Positions 1,920 through 42,684 of a DNA stretch of 64,000 nt are shown here, one piece after another. The translations under genes and the position numbers were made by a program. Positions within the stretch are counted from its first letter, which is position 1; each line of letters begins with the position of its first letter. Source of the stretch: an uncultured Desulfospira sp. (GTDB lineage Bacteria > Desulfobacterota > Desulfobacteria > Desulfobacterales > Desulfobacteraceae); assembly GCA_963663165.1 (NCBI GenBank), contig OY760175.1, positions 5,280,001 to 5,344,000 on the forward strand, read 5' to 3'. The notes under the pieces are model-generated. The model worked only from the letters and a program-made list of their open reading frames with translations, searched no databases and had not been told where the DNA came from.

Positions 1920-3920
1920 ATGACAGATCCTTTGTTCTCCCCTATCACCATCAACCAGCTCATCCTTGAAAACCGGATTTACCTGCCGGCCATGCACCTG
2001 GCCATGGCCAATGAGTTTGAGGTTACGGACCAGATCGTGGAATTTTATGCCCTCAGGGCAAAAGGCGGTGCCGGGATGATCTGTGTGGGGTATGCCACGG
2101 TGGACGAGCTTTCCGGAAACACCCAGAATATCGGTGCCCATGACGACCGGTTTATCCCGGGGCTTTCCCGGCTGGCCTCCGCTATAAAGGACAACGAATC
2201 AAAGGCGATTGTTCAGCTCAACCATGCCGGCCGGTATAATTTTTCATTTTTTCTGAATGGCAAAGAGCCGGTGGCCCCTTCGCCGGTGGCTTCCAGGATG
2301 ACCCGGGAAACCCCCAGGGAGATGACCCGTGAAGACATTGCCCAGACGGTGAAAGCCTTTGCATCGGCAGCCTTTAGGGTAAAACAGGCCGGGTATGACG
2401 GGGTTGAGATTTTAAGCGGGACCGGGTACCTGATCAGTGAGTTTTTATCCCCCTTGACCAACTTAAGATCCGATGAATACGGGGGAAGCCTGGAAAACCG
2501 GATGCGCTTCGGCCTTGAGGTCATGAATGCGGTCCGGCAGGCGGTGGGCGACGATTTCCCCCTGATCGTCCGGATAAACGGCAATGATTTTATGCCCGGC
2601 GGCAATACCCGGGAAGAACTCAAGGCTTACGCGTCGGCCCTGGCCAACGGGCCTGTGGATGCCCTTTGCGTGAATGTGGGCTGGCACGAGGCCCGGGTGC
2701 CCCAGATCGTGGCCCAGGTTCCCCGGGGGGCCTTTGCCTACCTTGCCGAGGGAATTAAAAAATGTGTGGATGTCCCCGTCATTGCCAGCCATCGGATAAA
2801 TGATCCGGCCACGGCCAGGAAAATGATCCGGGAAGGCCGGTGCGACATGGTGGCCATGGGGCGCAGCCTCATCGCCGATCCCATGCTGCCCCAGAAGGCC
2901 CGCCAGAAAAAGGAAAATGAAATTGTCCACTGTATTGCCTGCGGCCAGGGCTGTTTTGACCATTTGTTCAATCTTAAATTTGTGGAATGCCTGTGTAATC
3001 CCCTGGCCGGGTATGAATATCAGGGACACAGCCAAAAGGCGGATACGTCAAAGAAGGTGATGGTGGCCGGCGGCGGTCCGGCCGGCATGATCGCAGCCCT
3101 GACAGCAAAAAGGCGGGGGCATGATGTGAGCCTGTATGAAAGCAGCGGCCGTTTAGGCGGGCAGCTTCATTTGGCTGCCGCCCCTCCGGGCCGGGAGGAA
3201 TTTGTCCAGTTGGCCCGGGATCTTGAAACTCAGTTAACCCTTGAAGCCATCCCCGTGGTGCTGAATACGCCGGTGGATCAGGCCCTGCTTCAAGCTAAGA
3301 CCCCGGATGCCGTGATTATCGCCACCGGTGCCAAACCTTTTGTCCCGGATATCCCCGGTATGGACATGGATCATGTGGCAGAATCCTGGGATGTGCTGGC
3401 CGGTAAAGCCGATACCGGCAACCGGGTGGTGGTGGTGGGCGGCGGTGCCGTTGGCGTTGAAACCGCTCTGTTCCTTGCCGAACAGGGAACTCTGGAACCT
3501 GAAGTCCTCAAGTTTTTATTGGTGAACCGGGCCGAATCCCCTGAAACCCTCTATGAAATGGCAATAAAGGGAAGCAAACAGGTCACCCTCATTGAAATGA
3601 TGGATAAAATCGGAACCGGGATTGGCAAATCCACCAAGTGGGGGATGATGCAGGACCTTGGGCGGCTCGGGGTTGAGACCATCACCCGGGGCCAGGTCAC
3701 CCGGATTATCCCTACCGGCCTTTCCTATGAAAAGGATGGCCAAACCTTTTCTCTAGAGGCAGATACCGTGGTCATTGCCGCCGGGTCTGTTCCTTACAAC
3801 CCGTTAGAATCCCTGGTAAAGGGCATGGATATCCCCTGTGAGGTCGTGGGGGATGCCGGTAAAGTGGGAACCGCCTTTGATGCGGTTCACGCCGGATACC
3901 GGGCAGCCCTGGGAATATAA
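1920..3920 (+). CDS. fadH: 2,4-dienoyl-CoA reductase-like NADH:flavin oxidoreductase (OYE barrel plus FAD domain)
   Basis: OYE motifs (QLNHAGR, GYLISEFLSP, DEYGGSLENR), CIACGQGC Fe-S motif, two Rossmann motifs (GGGPAG, GGGAVG). Confidence 0.85.
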   Translation: MTDPLFSPITINQLILENRIYLPAMHLAMANEFEVTDQIVEFYALRAKGGAGMICVGYATVDELSGNTQNIGAHDDRFIPGLSRLASAIKDNESKAIVQLNHAGRYNFSFFLNGKEPVAPSPVASRMTRETPREMTREDIAQTVKAFASAAFRVKQAGYDGVEILSGTGYLISEFLSPLTNLRSDEYGGSLENRMRFGLEVMNAVRQAVGDDFPLIVRINGNDFMPGGNTREELKAYASALANGPVDALCVNVGWHEARVPQIVAQVPRGAFAYLAEGIKKCVDVPVIASHRINDPATARKMIREGRCDMVAMGRSLIADPMLPQKARQKKENEIVHCIACGQGCFDHLFNLKFVECLCNPLAGYEYQGHSQKADTSKKVMVAGGGPAGMIAALTAKRRGHDVSLYESSGRLGGQLHLAAAPPGREEFVQLARDLETQLTLEAIPVVLNTPVDQALLQAKTPDAVIIATGAKPFVPDIPGMDMDHVAESWDVLAGKADTGNRVVVVGGGAVGVETALFLAEQGTLEPEVLKFLLVNRAESPETLYEMAIKGSKQVTLIEMMDKIGTGIGKSTKWGMMQDLGRLGVETITRGQVTRIIPTGLSYEKDGQTFSLEADTVVIAAGSVPYNPLESLVKGMDIPCEVVGDAGKVGTAFDAVHAGYRAALGI

Positions 3921-3995: not shown

Positions 3996-4037
3996 CACCC
4001 GGCCACACGCAAAATATCTATTGCCCGTGGCCGGGTG
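3996..4037. terminator. Hairpin between convergent genes
   Basis: CACCCGGCCAC/GTGGCCGGGTG 11-bp inverted repeat with a 20-nt loop. Confidence 0.4.
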
Positions 4038-4076: not shown

Positions 4077-4667
4077 TCAGACGATTCCCCCCCTTTTTCG
4101 TGCTCGTCTCATGGCAGCACACAAAACAGCAATACCTCCTCCCATCAGCAGCAATGATGAGGGAGCCGGCACCGGGCTTCCCACAGCGGCCGAATAAGAG
4201 ACGCTGCAGCTCAGATCTTCATAGGAGTCAAAGTCCACATAAAAAAGGCCCCTCAAAGAGTCGTCGTATTCCGCATTGATACTCAGGTCGCATGAGCCCT
4301 CGCCCATAATGGTAAAATAAAGTGTGGCCAAAAGGACCTCTTGATCGGTGACACCAAGGAAAGACGTACCGCCTACAAATCCCCACTTGGCAGCACTCTC
4401 CAGGTATTCAAAATCTGATCCCAGCAGATAACCGGCATACCGGTATATGGTTTCATCTGCCACCTCAACATCAAAACCGAAAGACAACAGTTCATTTCCG
4501 GTTAAGTCGTCTGAATCCAGCCATACCTCTACTTCAAACACCGTATAGAGATAGCCGGTATATCCGGTTTGGGTTAAGCTGATGGATGGAGAGGCCAGGG
4601 CCTTTGTGCCGCAAAGACAAAATGCCAGCAGCAGTATCGTTAACAGCGTCGTTATTTGGGTTTTCAA
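4077..4667 (-). CDS. PEP-CTERM-type surface protein with a cohesin-like domain
   Basis: TTG start with AAGGAG RBS; signal peptide; FEVEVWL...SFGFDV...LATLYF...GEG pattern; PVPAPSS-TM-RRARKR tail. Confidence 0.75.
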   Translation of the reverse strand: MKTQITTLLTILLLAFCLCGTKALASPSISLTQTGYTGYLYTVFEVEVWLDSDDLTGNELLSFGFDVEVADETIYRYAGYLLGSDFEYLESAAKWGFVGGTSFLGVTDQEVLLATLYFTIMGEGSCDLSINAEYDDSLRGLFYVDFDSYEDLSCSVSYSAAVGSPVPAPSSLLLMGGGIAVLCAAMRRARKRGGIV

Positions 4668-4777
4668 TTTTTTAATCTCCTTTTTTTGGTCGACCTGGAA
4701 CTTGGGGCTGCCTTTCGCTACCGTTTGCAGAGCCCAGGTCCCATATCTTATATCCCGGTATTAAATTTTTTCACCAA

Positions 4778-5863
4778 TCAGGTTTCACTTAAAAATGTTT
4801 TGTAATATTTGTACCATTGCCGGTAATCGGCAAAGTCAACATCCCCGTCCTGGTCATAGTCGGCCGCCTCAACATAGGCAGCGTCCCCTTGAGACGTTCC
4901 GATGGCTTTTCGGATAAGCACCGCATCTGACCGGCCTACGGATCCGTCCTGGTCAAGATCGCCTTCCCACTTGGCATTGATTACACCAATGGCATCCAGA
5001 TCAACGCCTCCGGAGCCCCAGGTGACCCAGGCGTCGTAAATGGAATTTCCTGCAGAATCTTCAAAGGTGCCGTCTCCGGGAATATCAACAATCCTTACGT
5101 AATTTATCTCATTTAAATCGACCAAACCGGACAGGACAAGTTCGTCTTGCAGCAGGTCGTTCAGATCAAAGGGGGTGCCGAAACTGGTATTGTAACCATT
5201 GACATGCTTGCCCGCTAGATTAAAGATATTCGTCGGGTCCTGAGTCAGGTAGGCCTGGCTGGTGGGGCCGCCATCCAGGTAATTGAGATAGGAACAGGGG
5301 AAACGGGCAAAATTGATCCCGTCAGTAGATACCTCTACATATCCCAGTTCGGCAAATAACCCGCCGGTACTCGTACCAGCACCTGTTGTGTAGTCGGAGA
5401 TGAATCCGTTTTCAAATACCGCAAAATCCGCACCGTCGCCGTTGATGATGGCCCTGTCAAACCCTAAGGTCACATAACCAGGCCCGGATCCGCTGCCGGC
5501 CAGATAGGCTGCGATCTCTTCCGAATCCATGTCCCCAAGAGAAACAATGTGCATCACATTGCCGGTTGCTTCATACAGGGCATTTTGCGGGAATGTGAAC
5601 TGGGTTCCGATTCCGTTGTCGGCGTAGACCCCTTTTATATCCGATGGTTCATACGCCTGCACCGTGGCGGCCCAGCCTACAAAGACAGGATTGACATCGT
5701 TTTTGGAACTTACGACACCGTCCCCGGCGGGGCCAACATAACCGGGGATACCGGCATCTATTCCATCCCCGCCAACCGCATCCGAATAGGGTCCGGCAGC
5801 CCATGCCGTAACCCCTGACAGGGCGATTACGGCCATGACAAACAGCCATTTAATTGGTTTCAT
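4778..5863 (-). CDS. Secreted cell-surface protein with C-terminal dockerin-like duplicated Ca-binding loops
   Basis: Signal peptide; GYVTLGFD...NGDGADFAVFENGF...VEVSTDG domain; tail GDLDQDGSVGRSD...ADYDQDGDVDFAD. Confidence 0.8.
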   Translation of the reverse strand: MKPIKWLFVMAVIALSGVTAWAAGPYSDAVGGDGIDAGIPGYVGPAGDGVVSSKNDVNPVFVGWAATVQAYEPSDIKGVYADNGIGTQFTFPQNALYEATGNVMHIVSLGDMDSEEIAAYLAGSGSGPGYVTLGFDRAIINGDGADFAVFENGFISDYTTGAGTSTGGLFAELGYVEVSTDGINFARFPCSYLNYLDGGPTSQAYLTQDPTNIFNLAGKHVNGYNTSFGTPFDLNDLLQDELVLSGLVDLNEINYVRIVDIPGDGTFEDSAGNSIYDAWVTWGSGGVDLDAIGVINAKWEGDLDQDGSVGRSDAVLIRKAIGTSQGDAAYVEAADYDQDGDVDFADYRQWYKYYKTFLSET

Positions 5864-5878
5864 ATTGTATTCTCCTTT

Positions 5879-5991
5879 TATAAGAAAGTCTCACTAAGGT
5901 CCTGAGAAGACTTTCAATATTTGTTGTGGGCGGTGCTTGGTTGGATAATCCAAGCCGTCCGGTTTCTGCCCTTTAGGGTATGACAGTTATA
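5879..5991. repeat. ~90-bp two-hairpin MITE/REP-like element (family A), copy 1 of 7
   Basis: GAAAGTCT..AGACTTTC hairpin plus GTGGGCGG..CTTGG..CCAAG..CCGTCC hairpin. Other copies: 6691-6740, 7451-7522 (rev), 42402-42495, 42574-42633, 52102-52194, 60512-60605 (rev). Confidence 0.85.
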
Positions 5992-6616
5992 AAAATAGCC
6001 TGCGCCTGATGGCTGAAAGTCCCAGCAGTCCGCTGCCCATGATCAGCAGGGAGCCCGGTACCGGCACGGCAGCCCCAAAGTCAAGTCCGGCCCCGTTTAC
6101 CAGGTATCCTCCGGATATTAGATTTCTAAGATAAAGATTTTGCTCTGCCCAGGTTTGGATATAAAGTGAGTAATAGATGCAGGTTAAATCACTGGTATAT
6201 TCTGTAGGGAAATAAATATCCGGCTCCCCGTCCTGAACCGCACCATCAAGAATTTTCATGGTGTAGGTGCCCAGCAGGTAATCCTCATCTATCACGTAAT
6301 GGGTCCCGTTTCCCTGAATACCGGATATAATCCCATTGCCTACGATACCCGGAGTATATTTTTGATCAAAGTTTGACGGGAGATTGTTTTCATACTCGTT
6401 AATCCAGGCAGCCTCCGAGGTGTCAAAACAAAAACCCAGAGAGTAATATCTGAGGTTCACTGTCTCATCAGCATCTTCGTCCACCATTAACCATATTTCA
6501 ACAGTGTCATCCCCGTCTAAGTTATTCATTTCGATATACCAGGCCGAGGCCGGGAGTGCTGAAATAAAGAGTGTGCAAAACAAGGCCGCTGCCGCGACTA
6601 AAATTTTTTGGTTCAC
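5987..6616 (-). CDS. PEP-CTERM/VPLPA-CTERM-type surface protein, possibly cohesin-like
   Basis: GTG start with AAGGAG RBS; signal peptide; LRYYSLGFCFDTSE...YLLGTYTM pattern; AVPVPGS-TM-RRR tail. Confidence 0.75.
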   Translation of the reverse strand: MNQKILVAAAALFCTLFISALPASAWYIEMNNLDGDDTVEIWLMVDEDADETVNLRYYSLGFCFDTSEAAWINEYENNLPSNFDQKYTPGIVGNGIISGIQGNGTHYVIDEDYLLGTYTMKILDGAVQDGEPDIYFPTEYTSDLTCIYYSLYIQTWAEQNLYLRNLISGGYLVNGAGLDFGAAVPVPGSLLIMGSGLLGLSAIRRRLFL

Positions 6617-6751
6617 GTTGGTTCTCCTTATGCTATTTGGATTGCTCCTGATTTTTTATTAGGCCCCGGCCGGCGGCCCAGGGCCTTGCCTTTTAATATT
6701 GGGTGGGGGCGGATCTTGGTTGGCCAGCCAAGTCTTTCCCTGTTTGTCCCA

Positions 6752-7417
6752 TCAGGCTTTTCTGCGGCAGGTGCCGGCAAGGGCCAAAAGACCGCTACCC
6801 AGCAGCGAGAATGCACCGGGAACAGGTACGGCTGACAGGGTCCCCTCTATGGTCATGGTGATGCTGTCAAGAACAAAGTCTGTGCGGGCGTTGCCGTTCA
6901 GTCCCGCTTCGACCAGGTAAGTCAGTTCTCCGCTCTCCAGCAGGCTCAGGTCCGTGAGGGTGTATTCATAGGTTGAGGCGTCTGTGGTGGAATTAACGCC
7001 GACTTCCACAGCTTCTATGACGGTTGTGGTGCCGTTCAGTGTGACGGTGGCCAGATCCGGATAAATCGAGGTGTCCCTGGTGGTATCCATGCTGTTGGTA
7101 TCCGAGTAAATTCTGGGCGGAGTATTCCAGATGTTGTAATTCAGGTTGTCATCGTCGTGCCAGGTAAAGGTTAAGGTGACGGTAAGACCGGTATAGCCGG
7201 ACAGGTCTTCCCAGCCGCTGAAGCTGCCCGATACGGTTAAATAATTGGCAACAATATAGTCTCCCTGGATGGTATAATTTTCTCCAAGCCCGTAATGATA
7301 TACGGTCTGGTCTGCTGCCTCATATGTGTCTTCATATATTAGGGCTGCCGAAGCAGCTCCTGAAACCATAAAAAGTATGGAAAAGATTGCGGTTGTGATT
7401 AAAACTGATTTTTTCAT
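6752..7417 (-). CDS. PEP-CTERM/VPLPA-CTERM-type surface protein (Thr/Asp-rich beta domain)
   Basis: Start moved to MKKSVL with AAGGA RBS; signal peptide ending ASA; AVPVPGA-TM-RRK tail. Confidence 0.8.
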   Translation of the reverse strand: MKKSVLITTAIFSILFMVSGAASAALIYEDTYEAADQTVYHYGLGENYTIQGDYIVANYLTVSGSFSGWEDLSGYTGLTVTLTFTWHDDDNLNYNIWNTPPRIYSDTNSMDTTRDTSIYPDLATVTLNGTTTVIEAVEVGVNSTTDASTYEYTLTDLSLLESGELTYLVEAGLNGNARTDFVLDSITMTIEGTLSAVPVPGAFSLLGSGLLALAGTCRRKA

Positions 7418-7690
7418 GTGGTTTGTCCTTTCTTTTTTTATAAAATTCGAATAACTGTTATGGGGACGGCTTTGGTTATCCAACCTGGCGCCGGCCCACA
7501 ACGAAAAGCCTTTTCAGCTTGTTGATAAAAATTACATAGAAAAATCTGTGTTATTGAACAAAGCAGCACGTGCCGGAAGGACCGGTCCCGGTGGGCATTG
7601 ATTTGGGCAGCAGAATTGTGGTATTGTACGAAAATCCGTTTTTATTTGAAAACGGACAAGTACCTGCTTTAAATGCCGGTGCGATTTTTA

Positions 7691-7729
7691 AAGGCCCGCA
7701 GAGCATCTTGGCGGAGGCATGCGGGCCTT
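7691..7729. terminator. Strong hairpin in the leader downstream of the riboswitch
   Basis: AAGGCCCGCA/TGCGGGCCTT perfect 10-bp stem; only a short U tract on the minus strand. Confidence 0.4.
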
Positions 7730-7810
7730 CCCTTGTCGAGTAAAATTTTGGGGTCGATTTTTTCCTCCTTTTTCGGTAGTACGGCGCAATAAAAATATGC
7801 CGGGTTTAAT

Positions 7811-7912
7811 TCTCCGGGGCCGCCCGGCTGTCCTTTTTTTGATCCCTGAAGGAGAGGACCCGTGGCTTTCCGGACCCCGGTTTCCCGGGGTGTGGCTTTC
7901 GCTATCCGGGAG
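7811..7912 (-). ncRNA. Cyclic di-GMP-I (GEMM) riboswitch
   Basis: Minus strand GAAAG-CC-ACACC-CCGG-GAAA-CCGG-GG-UCCGG-AAAGCCACGGGUCCU...AGGACAGCCGGGCGGCC matches the GEMM P2 (GNRA loop), AAAGC junction and P3 layout. Confidence 0.8.
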
Positions 7913-33115: not shown

Positions 33116-36100
33116 TTATTGCGCAACCCAGCCGAAATTCAAGGCCAGATCTTCCAGCGTAACGGCACCTGATCCCTGCAGAACATATTCAGCCAGATCC
33201 TTTCCGTCCACATCCCCGTCTTCGTCCAGATCCCCGGACGTGATGGATGAGAGGACAAAATCAAAGGTTGAAACCCCCTTGGCCGTCACAGTGAATTTAC
33301 AGGCCTGGCTGTCATCCCGGGTGCCGCCTTCCTGGGTCCAGTATTCATAGTAAACGCCTGAGCCGGAATCAGACGGATGGGCAAGGAGGACAAATTCCTG
33401 GTCAGCCGGGACAAGCAGGGAGAACCAACCGTCGGAATCCGTTCTGTAACCATAGCCGTTGTTATAGTCTTCGGCTTCAAAGGCTGTCACGTCAACTCCG
33501 GAAAGGGGCTGGGTCATCTGAGCATCCCTGTACACGGTTCCCTGAATCCACCCGCCGAGGGCAGGCGTAAAGTTAACAGTGCCATTAACAGGAACCGCTT
33601 GCTCGTACTCCTCCCACAGGTAACAGGTCTCTCCTGAATTAAAGGTCACCCGGTATCCGTTCAGGCTTGGTGCCGGCAGTCCGACAACCATAAAATACCC
33701 TCCATCGGTAAGTCCCACCCATCCGAGATGTTCGTTTGTGTTCCAGTCATGGACACTGATAAATGCGGATTCCAAAGATTCAGGGTTGTCTCCGGTTTCA
33801 CCCTGCACAGAACCGTAAATGGTGTTCCCGGGCTCTATTTCAATGTCACCCATATTTGTTGACGCCCCCTGGCTTACTGAAATGGAAACGGCACTTCCAC
33901 AAGTTCTTGTTGTTCCTGCATTGCCATCATACCATCCGTCAATGTAATTTTCCAAGTTGCAGGCAGGGCAGACATAGACATAAGCTTTCCCTGCAGGAAC
34001 ATTTGTTATGGTAAAATATCCATATTCGTTCGTATCCGTACTGCCGTAATGGGTTCCTTCCTCGCAGGGGTCGGAAAAAGCCTGAACTTGAATATTGGCG
34101 ACCCCTTCCGTACCCTCCCCGACAACTGCCGTAATCCGGCCGGTGATGCTTCCTGCCTGATCAAGGACAAAATCAATGTCCTCCTCCACCTCGTATCCTG
34201 CGGTCACATCGACGGCCACGGCAGCGTTACAGTCATTGGTGTTGCCGTAATACTCGTCTGTATAGGGAAGGGCAACGCCGTCTTCGGTACAGTCCACACA
34301 GGTTCTAAGGTATACTTTTCCCGTGGGCAGACCCGAAAGGGTATAATCGCCGTTCTCGTCCGTATATGTCCCGGCAAGCCATTCTCCTTCACAGGCAGAA
34401 TCTGCCACAGCGTAAATATACAGGCCTTGTATGGGATTTTCACTGGTATCCGTTACATTTCCTTTAATCCACCCGCCGGGTGCCAGGTAAAAATTCGCCT
34501 CTACGGTGTCTCCTGCAGTGGCGACTGTCACCCCCTCTGCCCCGTTACAATCCAAGCTTCCCCCTGTCGAAGACCAGTACTCGGGCAGGTAGTTCACATC
34601 GTTATCCCAATCGGGTCTGGCCTTTAAAAAATAAGTTCCTACCGGAACGGTTATGCTGTATAGCCCGGTATCATAATCGGTTGCATACCCCCCCATCGGC
34701 TCCTCATCACATTTATTTTCAAAGATTTCCACCCCAAGGGAGCCGAGAGGTGAACCGCCACCATATACATATCCCTGGATCTTGCCGCCTTTTACCGGGT
34801 TAAAGGAAATATCAGTTCCAGCAGCAACCGTGCCCTGATATTGTTCGGCAATGTAAAAAGTATCTCCGGATTCCAGGTAAACCGTGTATCCGCCTGTAGA
34901 TGCCTGCAGCCCAAGCACGGTAAAGGTTCCTCCGCTGCCTTCACCGTTTGACACAACTTCGGCCCCGCTCAGATAGTTCCCGTCTGAATCATAGACATTG
35001 ACCCACATGCCCGCCACCCCGGCATCACCGGTAACGGTGCCGGAAATCTGCTCTCCGGCAGAAATTGCAATTGATCCGACATCCACATCCGCGGATGCGT
35101 CAACCGCGATTGCCTCATTACAGTCCTGAGTGCCGGCAGCCCCGTCATGCCATTCACCAATATAGTTTTCACCATTGCATTCCGGGCAGACGTAAACATA
35201 AACCGTGGTATCCGAAGGTACCCCGGATATGGAAAAATATCCATCACCGTTCGTATCGGCCTGGCTGTACTGGGTACCGTTCCAGCATGAATCAGAGAAC
35301 ACCTGAACATGAACATTGGCAACGCCTGTATCCGTGGACCCGTCCAGAACGATCCGGCCGGAAACGGTATGGGCGGGCTCCAGGATAAAATCAATACTGC
35401 TTGTTGTCTCTCCTGCAGACACGGTTACGAACTGGGCCGACCCGCAGTCTAGGGTGTCTCCGTAATATTCATCTACATAGGGAAGGGCAGAATCACCTTC
35501 TTCCTGAATACAATCCACACAGGTCCTGAGGTATACCTTCCCTTCGGGAAGACCAGAAAGGGTGTATTTGCCAGTAGCATCCGTATAGGTGCCGCTCACC
35601 CAGATACCGTCACAGGCCGACGACCCGACTACTGCATAAATATGCAGGTTTGCAATGGGATTTTTGTCATCACTGGAATCTGTAACCGTACCTGATATAG
35701 TTCCGGCCGCTGTAAGGACAAAATTCACGTCGGATGCATCTCCATCAACTGCCAGTTCAAGATCCACGGCATCGTTGCAGTCAATGGAACCGGCCCCGCC
35801 CGAGCCTGTCCACCATTCGTTGATATAATCGTGGCCATTGCATTCGGCACAGGCGATGACATAAATCGGATCGCCCGAAGACGGCACCGTAATGGAATAA
35901 TATCCATCGTCGTCCGTAGAAGCCCCATTGAGGGAAGTCCAGTTGCAGGCATTGGAAACAGCCTCAACCCGCAGGTTTGCAATGCCGTTTCCATCTTCGT
36001 CGGTTACCCTGCCGGACACCGTACCGCTCTTGTTGGGATCAGTTTCTCCGTCATCCACCCGGCCGTTGCCGTTTGCATCCTCCTGGCCGTCGGAAAGGCC

Positions 36101-38227
36101 GTCCCCATCGGTATCCCAGTTTAAAGGATCGGTGGTTGTGGCCGTGTCCTGATCCCCGGTATAACCATCTGCATAAGCCGGAAGCTCGGCTGCTGCCAGG
36201 CCGATTTCAATGCCGTCAAGCACCCCGTCTCCATCGGTATCCGATTCCCCGGGATCGGTTTCAGGCCAGTCAACCCGGCCGTTGGCATTCAGGTCTTCAT
36301 TGCCGTCCATAATGCCGTCATCGTCCATATCCCCGTCTCCGGGATTGTACACCAGCCTTAATTCGTCAAAATCCGACAGAAGATCCCCGTCACTATCAGC
36401 AGGCGTTCCGGTATATACCTTGCTGACTTTAACCAGAATATGGTTTCCCGCATCCCCTGCGCTGCCAGTGGAATATGGATACGCCCTGGCCGTCACCGCA
36501 AAATACTCATTTTCATTGGGATAGGCAGGCGTAGTAATTTCGTGTGTGTGGGTAGCGGTTTTATTGTTGGTCAAGTCGATACAGGAAAAAACGACACGGG
36601 TGCCTGTAAAATTCAGGCCGAGCCGGTAAGGCTTTCCCTTTTCAAGACTAAAGCCTTCGGGAAGAGAAAAGGACTCATTTATCACCTCTTGAGAATTGCC
36701 ATCCGCCGTATACCTCTCCATATAATATTTTGCTTTTAAAAATTCATTGGTACCATCTGTCTTAAGATCAATCAGTACCTGGGCCCAGACCTGCCCTTCC
36801 TGGCCGTTATATCCCTCAAACCCGCTTAAGGTATCGTTATACAGATTCCCTTCCAGCCGGACCCTGGCGGTGTTGTCGGTTGCAAGAGAGGATCCATCAA
36901 TGGTCACGTCGGCATAGGCATGGGTCATTTTCCTGCCGAACTTGAGCTGATTGGTCTCCCTGCTTCCTTTGGACTCAGCCATTAAAACCGCATCGGTGCC
37001 GTCTATGATCCGCACGGTCTCGGTGGTGCGCCAGTTGGCTGAAGTCCAGGCGATGTCATCGGATTCATCCTCAAAATCATCGTAATCGGCATGGTTAAGT
37101 TTAACATTATCAAACGCTGCAGATATGCTGCAAAGTTCCATTTTATCAGTGTTCCGGTTCATTCCCGTGGTCAGGGCCGGATAGGAATCCTGACAGGCCC
37201 TCTGGTAGGCCGGAAGCCCTGTGTAGGTGACATTGCCGATTTCATTTTCCGCACCATCCAGTACCGTATAGGTTACCTGACTGCTCCCCTGGACATATCC
37301 AATTTCAAGGCTGTACCAGGTATTAAGATCAATGTCTCCAGATACAGGGATGATTCCATAATCAATGGTTTCCCAGTTCTCTCCGTCTTCATCCTGGCTC
37401 TGCTGAATTAAATACCAGAACTGCTTTTGACCATTGCGTTCCCTAAGATAAAGGCCCGTCCAGATATTTCCGAGCTTTGCAGTCGGTGCTTCCGCGGCCG
37501 CATTGTAAAGGCTGACCCCCAACCGGGCGAAAACCTGGTTGCCGGAGGCCGTGCCCCCGTCAGTATCCATGATTTTCACGTCCGCTTTAAATTGGGTGAC
37601 CACCCCGGAATAGGTCATGGTCATATGATTTCTTTCCTGGGAGTTGGAGCTTCTGAAACCGGATACCAGCACGCCGTTTTCCACCCGGCGGACATATTCA
37701 AGGGCATTCCAGGTCCGTTTCCATTTGTCGGCAAGAAACAGTCCCGAAGCATCGGAAAAATCGTCGTAATCCTGAAGGATTTCTGAGCTTTCATAGGTTG
37801 TACCGATGGAAAAGTTCTGGCCCGAAATATCTAAAGTTCCAATTGCAATGGGAGACCCGGGTGCATATCCCATAGCATCCCCATAGTCCGGCCAGTCGAA
37901 AAGTTCGTCCGAAGTCTTGCAGGAAGCGTTTCTATCGTAAAAGGCCAGAACAATAACCGCCTCAGGCAGCGCATCTCCCGTGAGCGTTAAACTGTATTCT
38001 TCACTGCAGGCATTGCCTGCTGTACAGGATTCCCCCGGAGTGATCATAGTTGAAGCCACCATGTCGCCTTCCAGATCAAACGCCGCCACATAAAGGTCGC
38101 CGCCACCCGCCACCTTAGTGAACCCAATGTTGCCGGAAAGCGTCAGTGCCCAGGCCGAAGCCCCCCATAACACGGCCAGACACATCAGAACAAAAATCAG
38201 TCCGTTTCTTTTAAACTTTCTTCCCAT
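33116..38227 (-). CDS. Large acidic secreted/surface protein: TSP3-like Ca-binding repeats, tandem carboxypeptidase-regulatory-like beta repeats, C-terminal dockerin-like tail
   Basis: GGAGG RBS and signal peptide at MGRKFK; DTDGDG..DG.E repeats; repeated GxIxGxVT..DxxGxY modules with paired Cys; GDLDEDGDVDGKDLA. Confidence 0.85.
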   Translation of the reverse strand: MGRKFKRNGLIFVLMCLAVLWGASAWALTLSGNIGFTKVAGGGDLYVAAFDLEGDMVASTMITPGESCTAGNACSEEYSLTLTGDALPEAVIVLAFYDRNASCKTSDELFDWPDYGDAMGYAPGSPIAIGTLDISGQNFSIGTTYESSEILQDYDDFSDASGLFLADKWKRTWNALEYVRRVENGVLVSGFRSSNSQERNHMTMTYSGVVTQFKADVKIMDTDGGTASGNQVFARLGVSLYNAAAEAPTAKLGNIWTGLYLRERNGQKQFWYLIQQSQDEDGENWETIDYGIIPVSGDIDLNTWYSLEIGYVQGSSQVTYTVLDGAENEIGNVTYTGLPAYQRACQDSYPALTTGMNRNTDKMELCSISAAFDNVKLNHADYDDFEDESDDIAWTSANWRTTETVRIIDGTDAVLMAESKGSRETNQLKFGRKMTHAYADVTIDGSSLATDNTARVRLEGNLYNDTLSGFEGYNGQEGQVWAQVLIDLKTDGTNEFLKAKYYMERYTADGNSQEVINESFSLPEGFSLEKGKPYRLGLNFTGTRVVFSCIDLTNNKTATHTHEITTPAYPNENEYFAVTARAYPYSTGSAGDAGNHILVKVSKVYTGTPADSDGDLLSDFDELRLVYNPGDGDMDDDGIMDGNEDLNANGRVDWPETDPGESDTDGDGVLDGIEIGLAAAELPAYADGYTGDQDTATTTDPLNWDTDGDGLSDGQEDANGNGRVDDGETDPNKSGTVSGRVTDEDGNGIANLRVEAVSNACNWTSLNGASTDDDGYYSITVPSSGDPIYVIACAECNGHDYINEWWTGSGGAGSIDCNDAVDLELAVDGDASDVNFVLTAAGTISGTVTDSSDDKNPIANLHIYAVVGSSACDGIWVSGTYTDATGKYTLSGLPEGKVYLRTCVDCIQEEGDSALPYVDEYYGDTLDCGSAQFVTVSAGETTSSIDFILEPAHTVSGRIVLDGSTDTGVANVHVQVFSDSCWNGTQYSQADTNGDGYFSISGVPSDTTVYVYVCPECNGENYIGEWHDGAAGTQDCNEAIAVDASADVDVGSIAISAGEQISGTVTGDAGVAGMWVNVYDSDGNYLSGAEVVSNGEGSGGTFTVLGLQASTGGYTVYLESGDTFYIAEQYQGTVAAGTDISFNPVKGGKIQGYVYGGGSPLGSLGVEIFENKCDEEPMGGYATDYDTGLYSITVPVGTYFLKARPDWDNDVNYLPEYWSSTGGSLDCNGAEGVTVATAGDTVEANFYLAPGGWIKGNVTDTSENPIQGLYIYAVADSACEGEWLAGTYTDENGDYTLSGLPTGKVYLRTCVDCTEDGVALPYTDEYYGNTNDCNAAVAVDVTAGYEVEEDIDFVLDQAGSITGRITAVVGEGTEGVANIQVQAFSDPCEEGTHYGSTDTNEYGYFTITNVPAGKAYVYVCPACNLENYIDGWYDGNAGTTRTCGSAVSISVSQGASTNMGDIEIEPGNTIYGSVQGETGDNPESLESAFISVHDWNTNEHLGWVGLTDGGYFMVVGLPAPSLNGYRVTFNSGETCYLWEEYEQAVPVNGTVNFTPALGGWIQGTVYRDAQMTQPLSGVDVTAFEAEDYNNGYGYRTDSDGWFSLLVPADQEFVLLAHPSDSGSGVYYEYWTQEGGTRDDSQACKFTVTAKGVSTFDFVLSSITSGDLDEDGDVDGKDLAEYVLQGSGAVTLEDLALNFGWVAQ

Positions 38228-38363
38228 CGTTGCTGCCTCCCTGGATAAAAATGTCAGCACAGCAATTTTGACCACACGCTTTTATCCCTGTGCCGAACGC
38301 TTTATACAACAAATTTATGTAAACACATTGAATTGCAATTAAACCACTATATTAGCAATTGTT

Positions 38364-42370: not shown

Positions 42371-42684
42371 CCCGTCTCCTAGTGGTAATCTGGCATATTT
42401 TTATAAGAAAGTCTCACTGACAAGCCGAAAAGACTTTCATTTTTCGTTGTGGGCGGTGCTTGGTTGGATAATCCAAGCCGTCCGTGACGGTTATAAGAAA
42501 CTGGAGACAAGAAACAAGAGGGCGAAGCACCTGAGGTGCCCAATTTATAGCCTGCCATTGCCGGTATCTTCAGTTTCAATATTTGTTGTGGGCGGTTCTT
42601 GGTTGGATAACCAAGACGGCCCGTGGCCGTTATTTAGATGGTTAACAAATAATCAATCCATAATCAAGCTTGCCTTTACCGGGC

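Follow-up and report, generated by a model that had tools for sequence, protein, structure and literature searches.

Why would a Gram-negative sulfate reducer encode a dockerin-tailed protein among proteins with PEP-CTERM sorting tails, behind a c-di-GMP riboswitch? In the window, the 64,000-nucleotide stretch analysed here, four ORFs lie on the minus strand in the 5'-to-3' order 221-aa (7417-6752), 209-aa (6616-5987), 361-aa (5863-4778) and 196-aa (4667-4077), each with an AGGA-type RBS before its start and with signal peptides that we assigned by eye. An RBS precedes the ATG at 7417, which makes a 249-aa reading of the first gene from the TTG at 7501 unlikely. On the same strand, about 400 nt upstream of this first start codon, a full-length match to Rfam RF01051 (7906-7815; 45.6 bits, E 1e-5, gathering threshold 35) marks a c-di-GMP-I riboswitch aptamer. 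The four co-oriented secreted genes behind such a riboswitch described in the initial annotation were thus recovered, as was its sulfate-reducing host, given dsrA in the genome. The same genome carries a GspD secretin and 83-90 PEP-CTERM tails by sequence patterns, and a census of exosortases returned two TIGR02602 (EpsH-family) matches above the cut-off.

The 361-aa protein consists of a cargo domain (4976-5797, minus strand) and a C-terminal class A dockerin (4781-4975, minus strand). The suggestion that it ends in a dockerin was borne out by two Ca-loop-helix units with invariant loop aspartates and by a Pfam Dockerin_1 match at residues 301-347 (31.7 bits, cut-off 22.9), the best PDB sequence matches of the C-terminus being cellulosomal dockerins (to E 1.5e-5). 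The class A profile scored it at 78 bits, compared with 17 for class B and 27 for class C. The second dockerin helix is the usual binding element, and residues D50, Y51 and W54 of the second unit are invariant in alignment A3 (18 sequences). Pfam and PDB searches with the cargo domain gave no match; it bears a distant likeness to LIC_13355 (NCBIfam NF033170, 20.3 bits, cut-off 120; Atlas 0.95). In other proteins this domain is anchored directly by PEP-CTERM or CF-box-like tails, and its three closest relatives carry a PEP-CTERM tail at the exact position of the dockerin, suggesting that the dockerin serves as an indirect anchor evolutionarily interchangeable with the direct one. A second passenger had been proposed at 33116-38275, but this protein contains only one Ca-loop-like unit, gave neither a Dockerin_1 match at E<=1 nor a score with the class A, B and C dockerin profiles, and is hence not a plausible partner.

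The predicted anchor for the upstream dockerin is the 196-aa protein, which would join a class A cohesin to a signal peptide and a PEP-CTERM tail. No match to Pfam Cohesin PF00963 was found for it, only two of the 81 family members match that profile, and weakly (best E 0.019), and PDB sequence searches gave no match. Its model is an all-beta sandwich of about 140 residues with a pLDDT of 92.2, and in a fold search against 48,161 chains ranks 1-14 were all cohesins, matching over the whole domain; 3kcp and 2o4e, which fall within these ranks, are counted as cohesins in part from a PDB sequence match. Identity to solved cohesins is 7-19%, profile-profile comparison of the family with Pfam-positive cohesins gave 94%, and the Atlas cohesin cluster came up only at rank 8 (0.83). 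The protein is thus predicted to adopt a cohesin fold, as had been proposed; its scores place it outside PF00963, in a diverged cohesin subfamily. The label 'type II-like' given to this system could not be established: type II cohesins have beta-flaps and a crowning helix as extras, whereas the model has no helix, fits Clostridium perfringens and type I cohesins best and meets a type II cohesin first at rank 18.

Three sorting tails had been noted in the operon, and two of them hold by score. The 196-aa and 209-aa tails both have the motif, TM helix and basic tail, and reach the PF07589 cut-off of 20.7 bits (20.7 and 20.8, respectively; TIGR02595 18.1 and 15.4, cut-off 16). The tail of the 221-aa secreted protein shares the layout but falls below that cut-off at 15.1 bits. 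This protein is probably not a cohesin, as judged from its single sequence: comparison with the cohesin profile gave 8% across 33 columns, and the class A, B and C profiles gave less than 1%. On the basis of its profile and of an all-beta model of moderate pLDDT (72.6), we consider the 209-aa protein a likely cohesin of a second class, B: hhalign of its family against Pfam-positive cohesins gave 83% (E 8.7e-6, 108 columns), with a score of 37 versus at most 14 for shuffles. The weaker cohesin call made for it in the initial annotation is therefore probably right, but it belongs to another class, with matching dockerins elsewhere in the genome.

Gene pairing and class matching were followed across genomes. 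Members of the 196-aa family follow a dockerin gene of one subtype, that of 5863-4778, in 18 of 21 loci, and the cargoes are unrelated. Relatives of the 209-aa protein follow the other, class B subtype in 13 of 14 loci; the window locus, with no class B dockerin gene beside the 209-aa gene, is the exception, and the partner of this protein is therefore probably encoded elsewhere. A third, Pfam-detectable class, C, is present in the genome, with weaker dockerin-cohesin pairing (9/25 loci, flank ~1.4 kb). By class profiles, dockerin type equals cohesin class in all 34 pairs, two of the own-genome labels (B?) being tentative and one of these having seeded the class B search; within classes dockerins and cohesins correlate with r 0.69. 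Because neighbouring genes are co-inherited, both the class matching and this correlation could come from linkage alone. Of the genome's cohesin-like genes, three lack any dockerin gene within 2 kb; immediately after each of three dockerin genes comes a PEP-CTERM gene that encodes no cohesin.

We thus propose, with a probability of about 0.7, that the 196-aa protein is an exosortase-anchored single cohesin that binds the class A dockerin and holds the cargo on the cell surface. The dockerin, tails, riboswitch, pairing, class matching, exosortases and secretin come from sequence and search tools, and the cohesin fold is predicted. Cargo and 196-aa protein would pass the inner membrane via their signal peptides, the exosortase would replace the PEP-CTERM tail with a membrane anchor, and both partners would be brought to the outer surface, probably by type II secretion, where the dockerin would bind only a cohesin of its own class in a calcium-dependent manner. 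The 209-aa protein, likely a second-class socket, may serve cargoes encoded elsewhere. The modular scaffold previously envisaged gives way to single-cohesin anchors: no multi-cohesin scaffoldin occurs among the 11 PEP-CTERM cohesins, the two PF00963 matches of the genome both fall in short PEP-CTERM proteins with a single domain, and no glycoside hydrolase or cellulase was found among 13 scanned proteins, a set that excludes the fourth-kind dockerin proteins.

Linkage raises the question of whether cohesin-like domain and dockerin-like tail form a DNA cassette without mutual binding, with the tail acting as a tag for secretion or calcium binding, and the beta-sandwich as an adhesin or matrix protein. 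We regard this as quite improbable, since cargo is freely exchanged yet dockerin and cohesin class remain matched, the match persists in reversed gene order (two class C pairs), the dockerin sits where the nearest relatives of the cargo have their direct anchor, and the aromatics of the second dockerin helix are invariant and class-specific. A biofilm signal such as c-di-GMP and cohesin genes without an adjoining dockerin gene could also fit sockets that mainly capture dockerin-tagged proteins of neighbours, for aggregation or for kin or partner recognition. Syntrophic sulfate reducers do express cohesin/dockerin proteins, and passages of PMC10553843 propose a partnership role. Most sockets are nevertheless encoded beside their own cargo, the classes are conserved across families and not strain-variable, and cargoes without a second cell anchor cannot alone bridge two cells, which makes neighbour capture very unlikely.

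Where the complex ends up is a separate matter. It might form but remain tethered to the inner membrane on its periplasmic side, or be shed into the exopolysaccharide matrix once cleaved, as PEP-CTERM sorting is tied to exopolysaccharide, the surface or matrix location in the relevant passages of PMC1569441 is a proposal, not a demonstration, and both exosortases here lie among genes resembling polysaccharide synthesis and export (labels by eye). We consider this unlikely: according to parts of PMC11980579, substrates of exosortases appear to end up on the cell surface with a membrane anchor, and type II secretion, for which GspD is present here, is the route of MYXO-CTERM proteins; subtilases, phosphoesterases and kelch proteins as cargo types fit an extracellular place.

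We tentatively speculate, although we would wager against it, that sulfate-reducing Desulfobacterales possess a surface address code: secreted proteins would be sorted by function through three exosortase-anchored cohesin classes that do not cross-react, each binding only its own dockerin type. Phosphate-releasing enzymes would go to class C (of its five dockerin cargoes in the genome, four contain a metallophosphoesterase domain and one a choice-of-anchor I domain), adhesin-like cargo to class A, and subtilases together with thrombospondin-repeat proteins to class B. The operon would then provide a class A socket for its own cargo and, in trans, a class B socket for the proteases clustered at 6.10-6.11 Mb, where no cohesin gene is present. 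If true, retention of those proteases on the cell or their loss by diffusion would depend on c-di-GMP.

Single-cohesin anchoring proteins are known from cellulosome producers (OlpA and OlpC of C. thermocellum, ScaE of R. flavefaciens), whereas here a PEP-CTERM tail would anchor the predicted cohesin in a two-membrane cell. C. perfringens cohesins (2vo8, 2w1n) are modules within large glycoside hydrolases, in contrast to the stand-alone sorted protein encoded beside its cargo in this operon; Archaeoglobus fulgidus 2xdh is likewise non-cellulosomal. Non-cellulolytic cohesin-dockerin surface complexes have been proposed from genomes, as here, for the Planctosome (PMC6461901) and for ANME and syntrophic SRB (PMC9012536, PMC10553843, PMC5244752), but with lamin-tail or S-layer domains, or none, as anchors; 'CTERM' and 'sortase' are absent from the main text of PMC10553843. 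Tripartite tails, their many copies and EpsH-family exosortases agree with the PEP-CTERM/exosortase system (Haft et al., 2006; PMC1569441), whose main text lacks 'cohesin' and 'dockerin'; in contrast to that system, no PrsR exceeded the cut-off in the genome (best 412.9 vs 502.6 bits) and c-di-GMP riboswitches head several PEP-CTERM genes. Our literature searches found no cohesin-PEP-CTERM pairing.

Such sockets would correspond, in two-membrane cells, to the cohesins anchored by sortase or SLH. They would explain why Gram-negative bacteria indifferent to cellulose put dockerin ends on many of their secreted proteins, and give one group of PEP-CTERM proteins, most of which have no assigned function, a testable job. 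With three classes of distinct sequence in a single complete genome, a direct 3x3 matrix could probe binding and specificity; for surface display, natural orthogonal pairs that come with their own Gram-negative anchor would be useful tools.

As for regulation, the operon likely belongs to a surface-protein regulon and is linked to c-di-GMP through the riboswitch. The aptamer is one of eight RF01051 matches in the genome, seven of which exceed the cut-off, and four of the eight lie within 1 kb of PEP-CTERM genes. This linkage is already published for Methylophaga, where four of seven riboswitches flank PEP-CTERM or VPLPA-CTERM genes; the relevant passages of that report (PMC12530212) mention no cohesin-dockerin module. 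In the leader, a hairpin (7691-7729, minus strand) seen in the MFE and the centroid fold alike is possibly part of the expression platform: its core is kept in the paralogous leader at G000:C1:3624427, no canonical U-tract comes after it, and no clear terminator was found in the leader. The intergenic gaps of 110-135 nt contain hairpins, so that control by the riboswitch may stop short of the last two genes. An inverted repeat 3' of the operon (3996-4037; 17-nt arms, 88% complementary, 8-nt loop) separates its end from the convergent gene 1920-3920 and is likely a terminator, judging from its sequence. Two copies of a REP-like intergenic element (7464-7496 and 5928-5960) form an inverted repeat with each other, and 38 exact copies and 77 with one mismatch occur genome-wide.

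The initial annotation proposed a cohesin-dockerin surface scaffold encoded by four co-oriented genes behind a c-di-GMP riboswitch. This gene order was borne out, with all four genes and the c-di-GMP-I aptamer (7906-7815; 45.6 bits) on the minus strand. Past a leader of about 400 nt follow genes for proteins of 221 aa (7417-6752), 209 aa (6616-5987), 361 aa (5863-4778), and 196 aa (4667-4077), each with a ribosome-binding site. Among the three presumed PEP-CTERM-type tails, those of the 196-aa and 209-aa proteins reach the Pfam cut-off, while that of the 221-aa protein is alike in layout but falls below it. The duplicated calcium-loop end of the 361-aa protein was confirmed as a Dockerin_1 domain (31.7 bits vs the Pfam cut-off of 22.9). 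One other genome of the genus carries the operon too, at approximately 97% identity. The host genome is a single 6.74-Mb contig carrying dsrA, in which our census found two exosortases, a GspD, 20 Dockerin_1 matches, and 83-90 PEP-CTERM-like tails (pattern search, a few false positives included).

The 196-aa protein is predicted to fold as a cohesin, and its family is here called class A. When class A loci were picked by the cohesin alone, the dockerin playing no part in selection, a dockerin-ended gene was located directly upstream in 18 out of 21. The three remaining loci comprise a host-genome paralogue, a contig end, and a locus (L017, G053:C1) where ORFs labelled transposase-like by eye occupy the site expected for the dockerin gene. 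The cargoes ahead of these dockerins are mutually unrelated, yet the dockerins, including that of the window, belong to a single subtype in which D50, Y51, and W54 are invariant. At one class A locus (L032, G382:C79), three tandem dockerins of two kinds are carried by the upstream cargo, and a seven-gene PEP-CTERM cluster of the host genome (L025, G000:C1:1989163-2001739) holds an orphan class A cohesin, along with a c-di-GMP riboswitch preceding a gene labelled radical-SAM-like by eye.

We favour, with a probability of about 0.7, a reading in which an exosortase-anchored cohesin captures calcium-loaded dockerin of the matching class; how the proteins are exported, processed, bound to each other, and regulated is inferred throughout. 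The cohesin would be exported, its tail would be exchanged by exosortase for a membrane anchor, and the anchored protein would then capture the dockerin, whereby the cargo would be retained at the cell surface. The proposed display by a PEP-CTERM-tailed cohesin is supported, in the form of single-cohesin anchoring instead of a multi-site scaffold. That this complex resides in the periplasm or the matrix is unlikely, and capture of proteins from neighbouring cells by the sockets is very improbable.

Somewhat less probable than a periplasmic or matrix location is that the genes are linked without any binding. In the host genome, 5 of 11 cohesin-like genes (two of these labels being tentative) sit immediately after a dockerin gene, as do 3 of the 72 others. 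From 39 dockerin-cohesin pairs, 5 were removed as near-duplicates; in all 34 that remained (17 of class A, 10 of class B, and 7 of class C), the nearest dockerin from another genome accompanied the same cohesin class, compared with a mean of 12.2 and a maximum of 25 upon label shuffling. Several genomes carry two or even all three of the classes, and different-class dockerins are no closer within a genome (27%) than across genomes, so shared host ancestry does not account for the match. Adjacent-gene linkage could underlie it; however, cargoes are swapped while the class match persists, and two class C pairs retain it in reversed gene order.

The cargo domain of the 361-aa protein has no match in Pfam or PDB, and distantly resembles LIC_13355, a Leptospira protein for which PMC11891782 reports laminin and plasminogen binding; an adhesive or matrix role is our guess. 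Within the order, the domain turns up in 37 of 251 genomes. Tails at the 30 best cargo loci were CF-box-like (22), PEP-CTERM (3), dockerin-like (2), or neither (2), the last locus being the window gene itself. In the three closest relatives among them, a PEP-CTERM tail immediately follows the domain, and a host-genome paralogue is likewise tailed directly with PEP-CTERM. Since relatives carry PEP-CTERM or CF-box-like tails there, the dockerin occupies the usual surface-anchor position. One arm of a divergent paralogous locus (L001, G000:C1:3622491-3629237) mirrors the operon layout: a pair of PEP-CTERM genes is accompanied by the same cargo, again ending in a class A dockerin, and by a class A cohesin. 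In its other arm, a paralogous riboswitch leader is fused to a class A dockerin remnant that misses the first calcium loop, suggesting a deletion, followed by a PEP-CTERM gene.

The 209-aa protein, more weakly proposed as a cohesin, is likely one, of a second class (class B) separate from that of the dockerin presumed to partner the 196-aa protein, judging from profile comparison of its family with cohesins (83% over 108 columns; score 37, shuffles at most 14) and an all-beta predicted model (pLDDT 72.6). Members of the family follow a dockerin gene of a subtype other than class A at 13 of 14 loci, the window gene being the sole exception, and a dockerin of this other subtype lies directly upstream in 10/10 loci that were no search seeds. 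In this subtype the linker is short, and most members end in a P-aromatic-Y motif. It is found on three host proteins at 6.10-6.11 Mb (two subtilases and a thrombospondin-repeat protein). None of the five PEP-CTERM genes there is cohesin-like by profile, so these dockerins would require a socket encoded elsewhere, the candidates being the 209-aa protein of the window and the 807170 paralogue of that protein.

Class C comprises five PEP-CTERM proteins in the host genome, both Pfam Cohesin matches among them. Of the five proteins bearing the class C dockerin subtype, four have a metallophosphoesterase domain and the fifth has only a choice-of-anchor I domain; pairing is weaker, being seen at 9 of 25 loci when a short flank is considered. 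At L006 (G000:C1:5960500-5972500), a class C cohesin is flanked by two class C dockerin phosphoesterases, one carrying its dockerin mid-protein between two catalytic domains. Across the order, 49 of 201 genomes encode Pfam cohesins, with up to 19 matches in a single genome, and no PEP-CTERM tail was found on the 30 best-scoring (L046-L075), indicating that other cohesin architectures are common.

A full-text literature search, which covered few subscription papers, revealed no work joining cohesin, dockerin, and PEP-CTERM. PEP-CTERM and cohesin were nowhere found together, which does not prove absence from print, and exosortase and dockerin were handled separately in the one paper where both occur. 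What appears new is the proposed shift of single-cohesin anchoring, a known arrangement, onto the exosortase system, with three classes co-resident in one genome.

The c-di-GMP-I riboswitch is present in eight copies in the host genome. For four of them a PEP-CTERM gene lies on the same strand no more than 1 kb away (0.7% expected), and for five no more than 3 kb away (1.8% expected); the same linkage is reported in Methylophaga (PMC12530212). As the window leader shows no clear terminator and hairpins lie between the operon genes, the predicted control could be of either sign and may not extend to all of the genes. Copies at G000:C1:3708650 and 250450 lie in front of genes for a secreted protein of 2819 aa and for a protein that contains a dockerin-like repeat.

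The supposed second dockerin passenger at 33116-38275 was rejected from the plug-and-socket set, as it has a single calcium-loop unit, no dockerin match, and no class A, B, or C score. It is a 1719-aa secreted protein with CarboxypepD_reg repeats, encoded in a flagellar region and ending in the single calcium-loop tag. This tail belongs to a fourth kind, dockerin-like or half-dockerin, which many secreted host-genome proteins carry although no cohesin gene lies nearby. Besides, a REP-like palindromic intergenic element was observed in the window at 5928-5960, 7464-7496, and near 42479 and 60528; genome-wide, 38 copies are exact and another 77 differ by one mismatch, and the copies often come in pairs about 90 bp apart.
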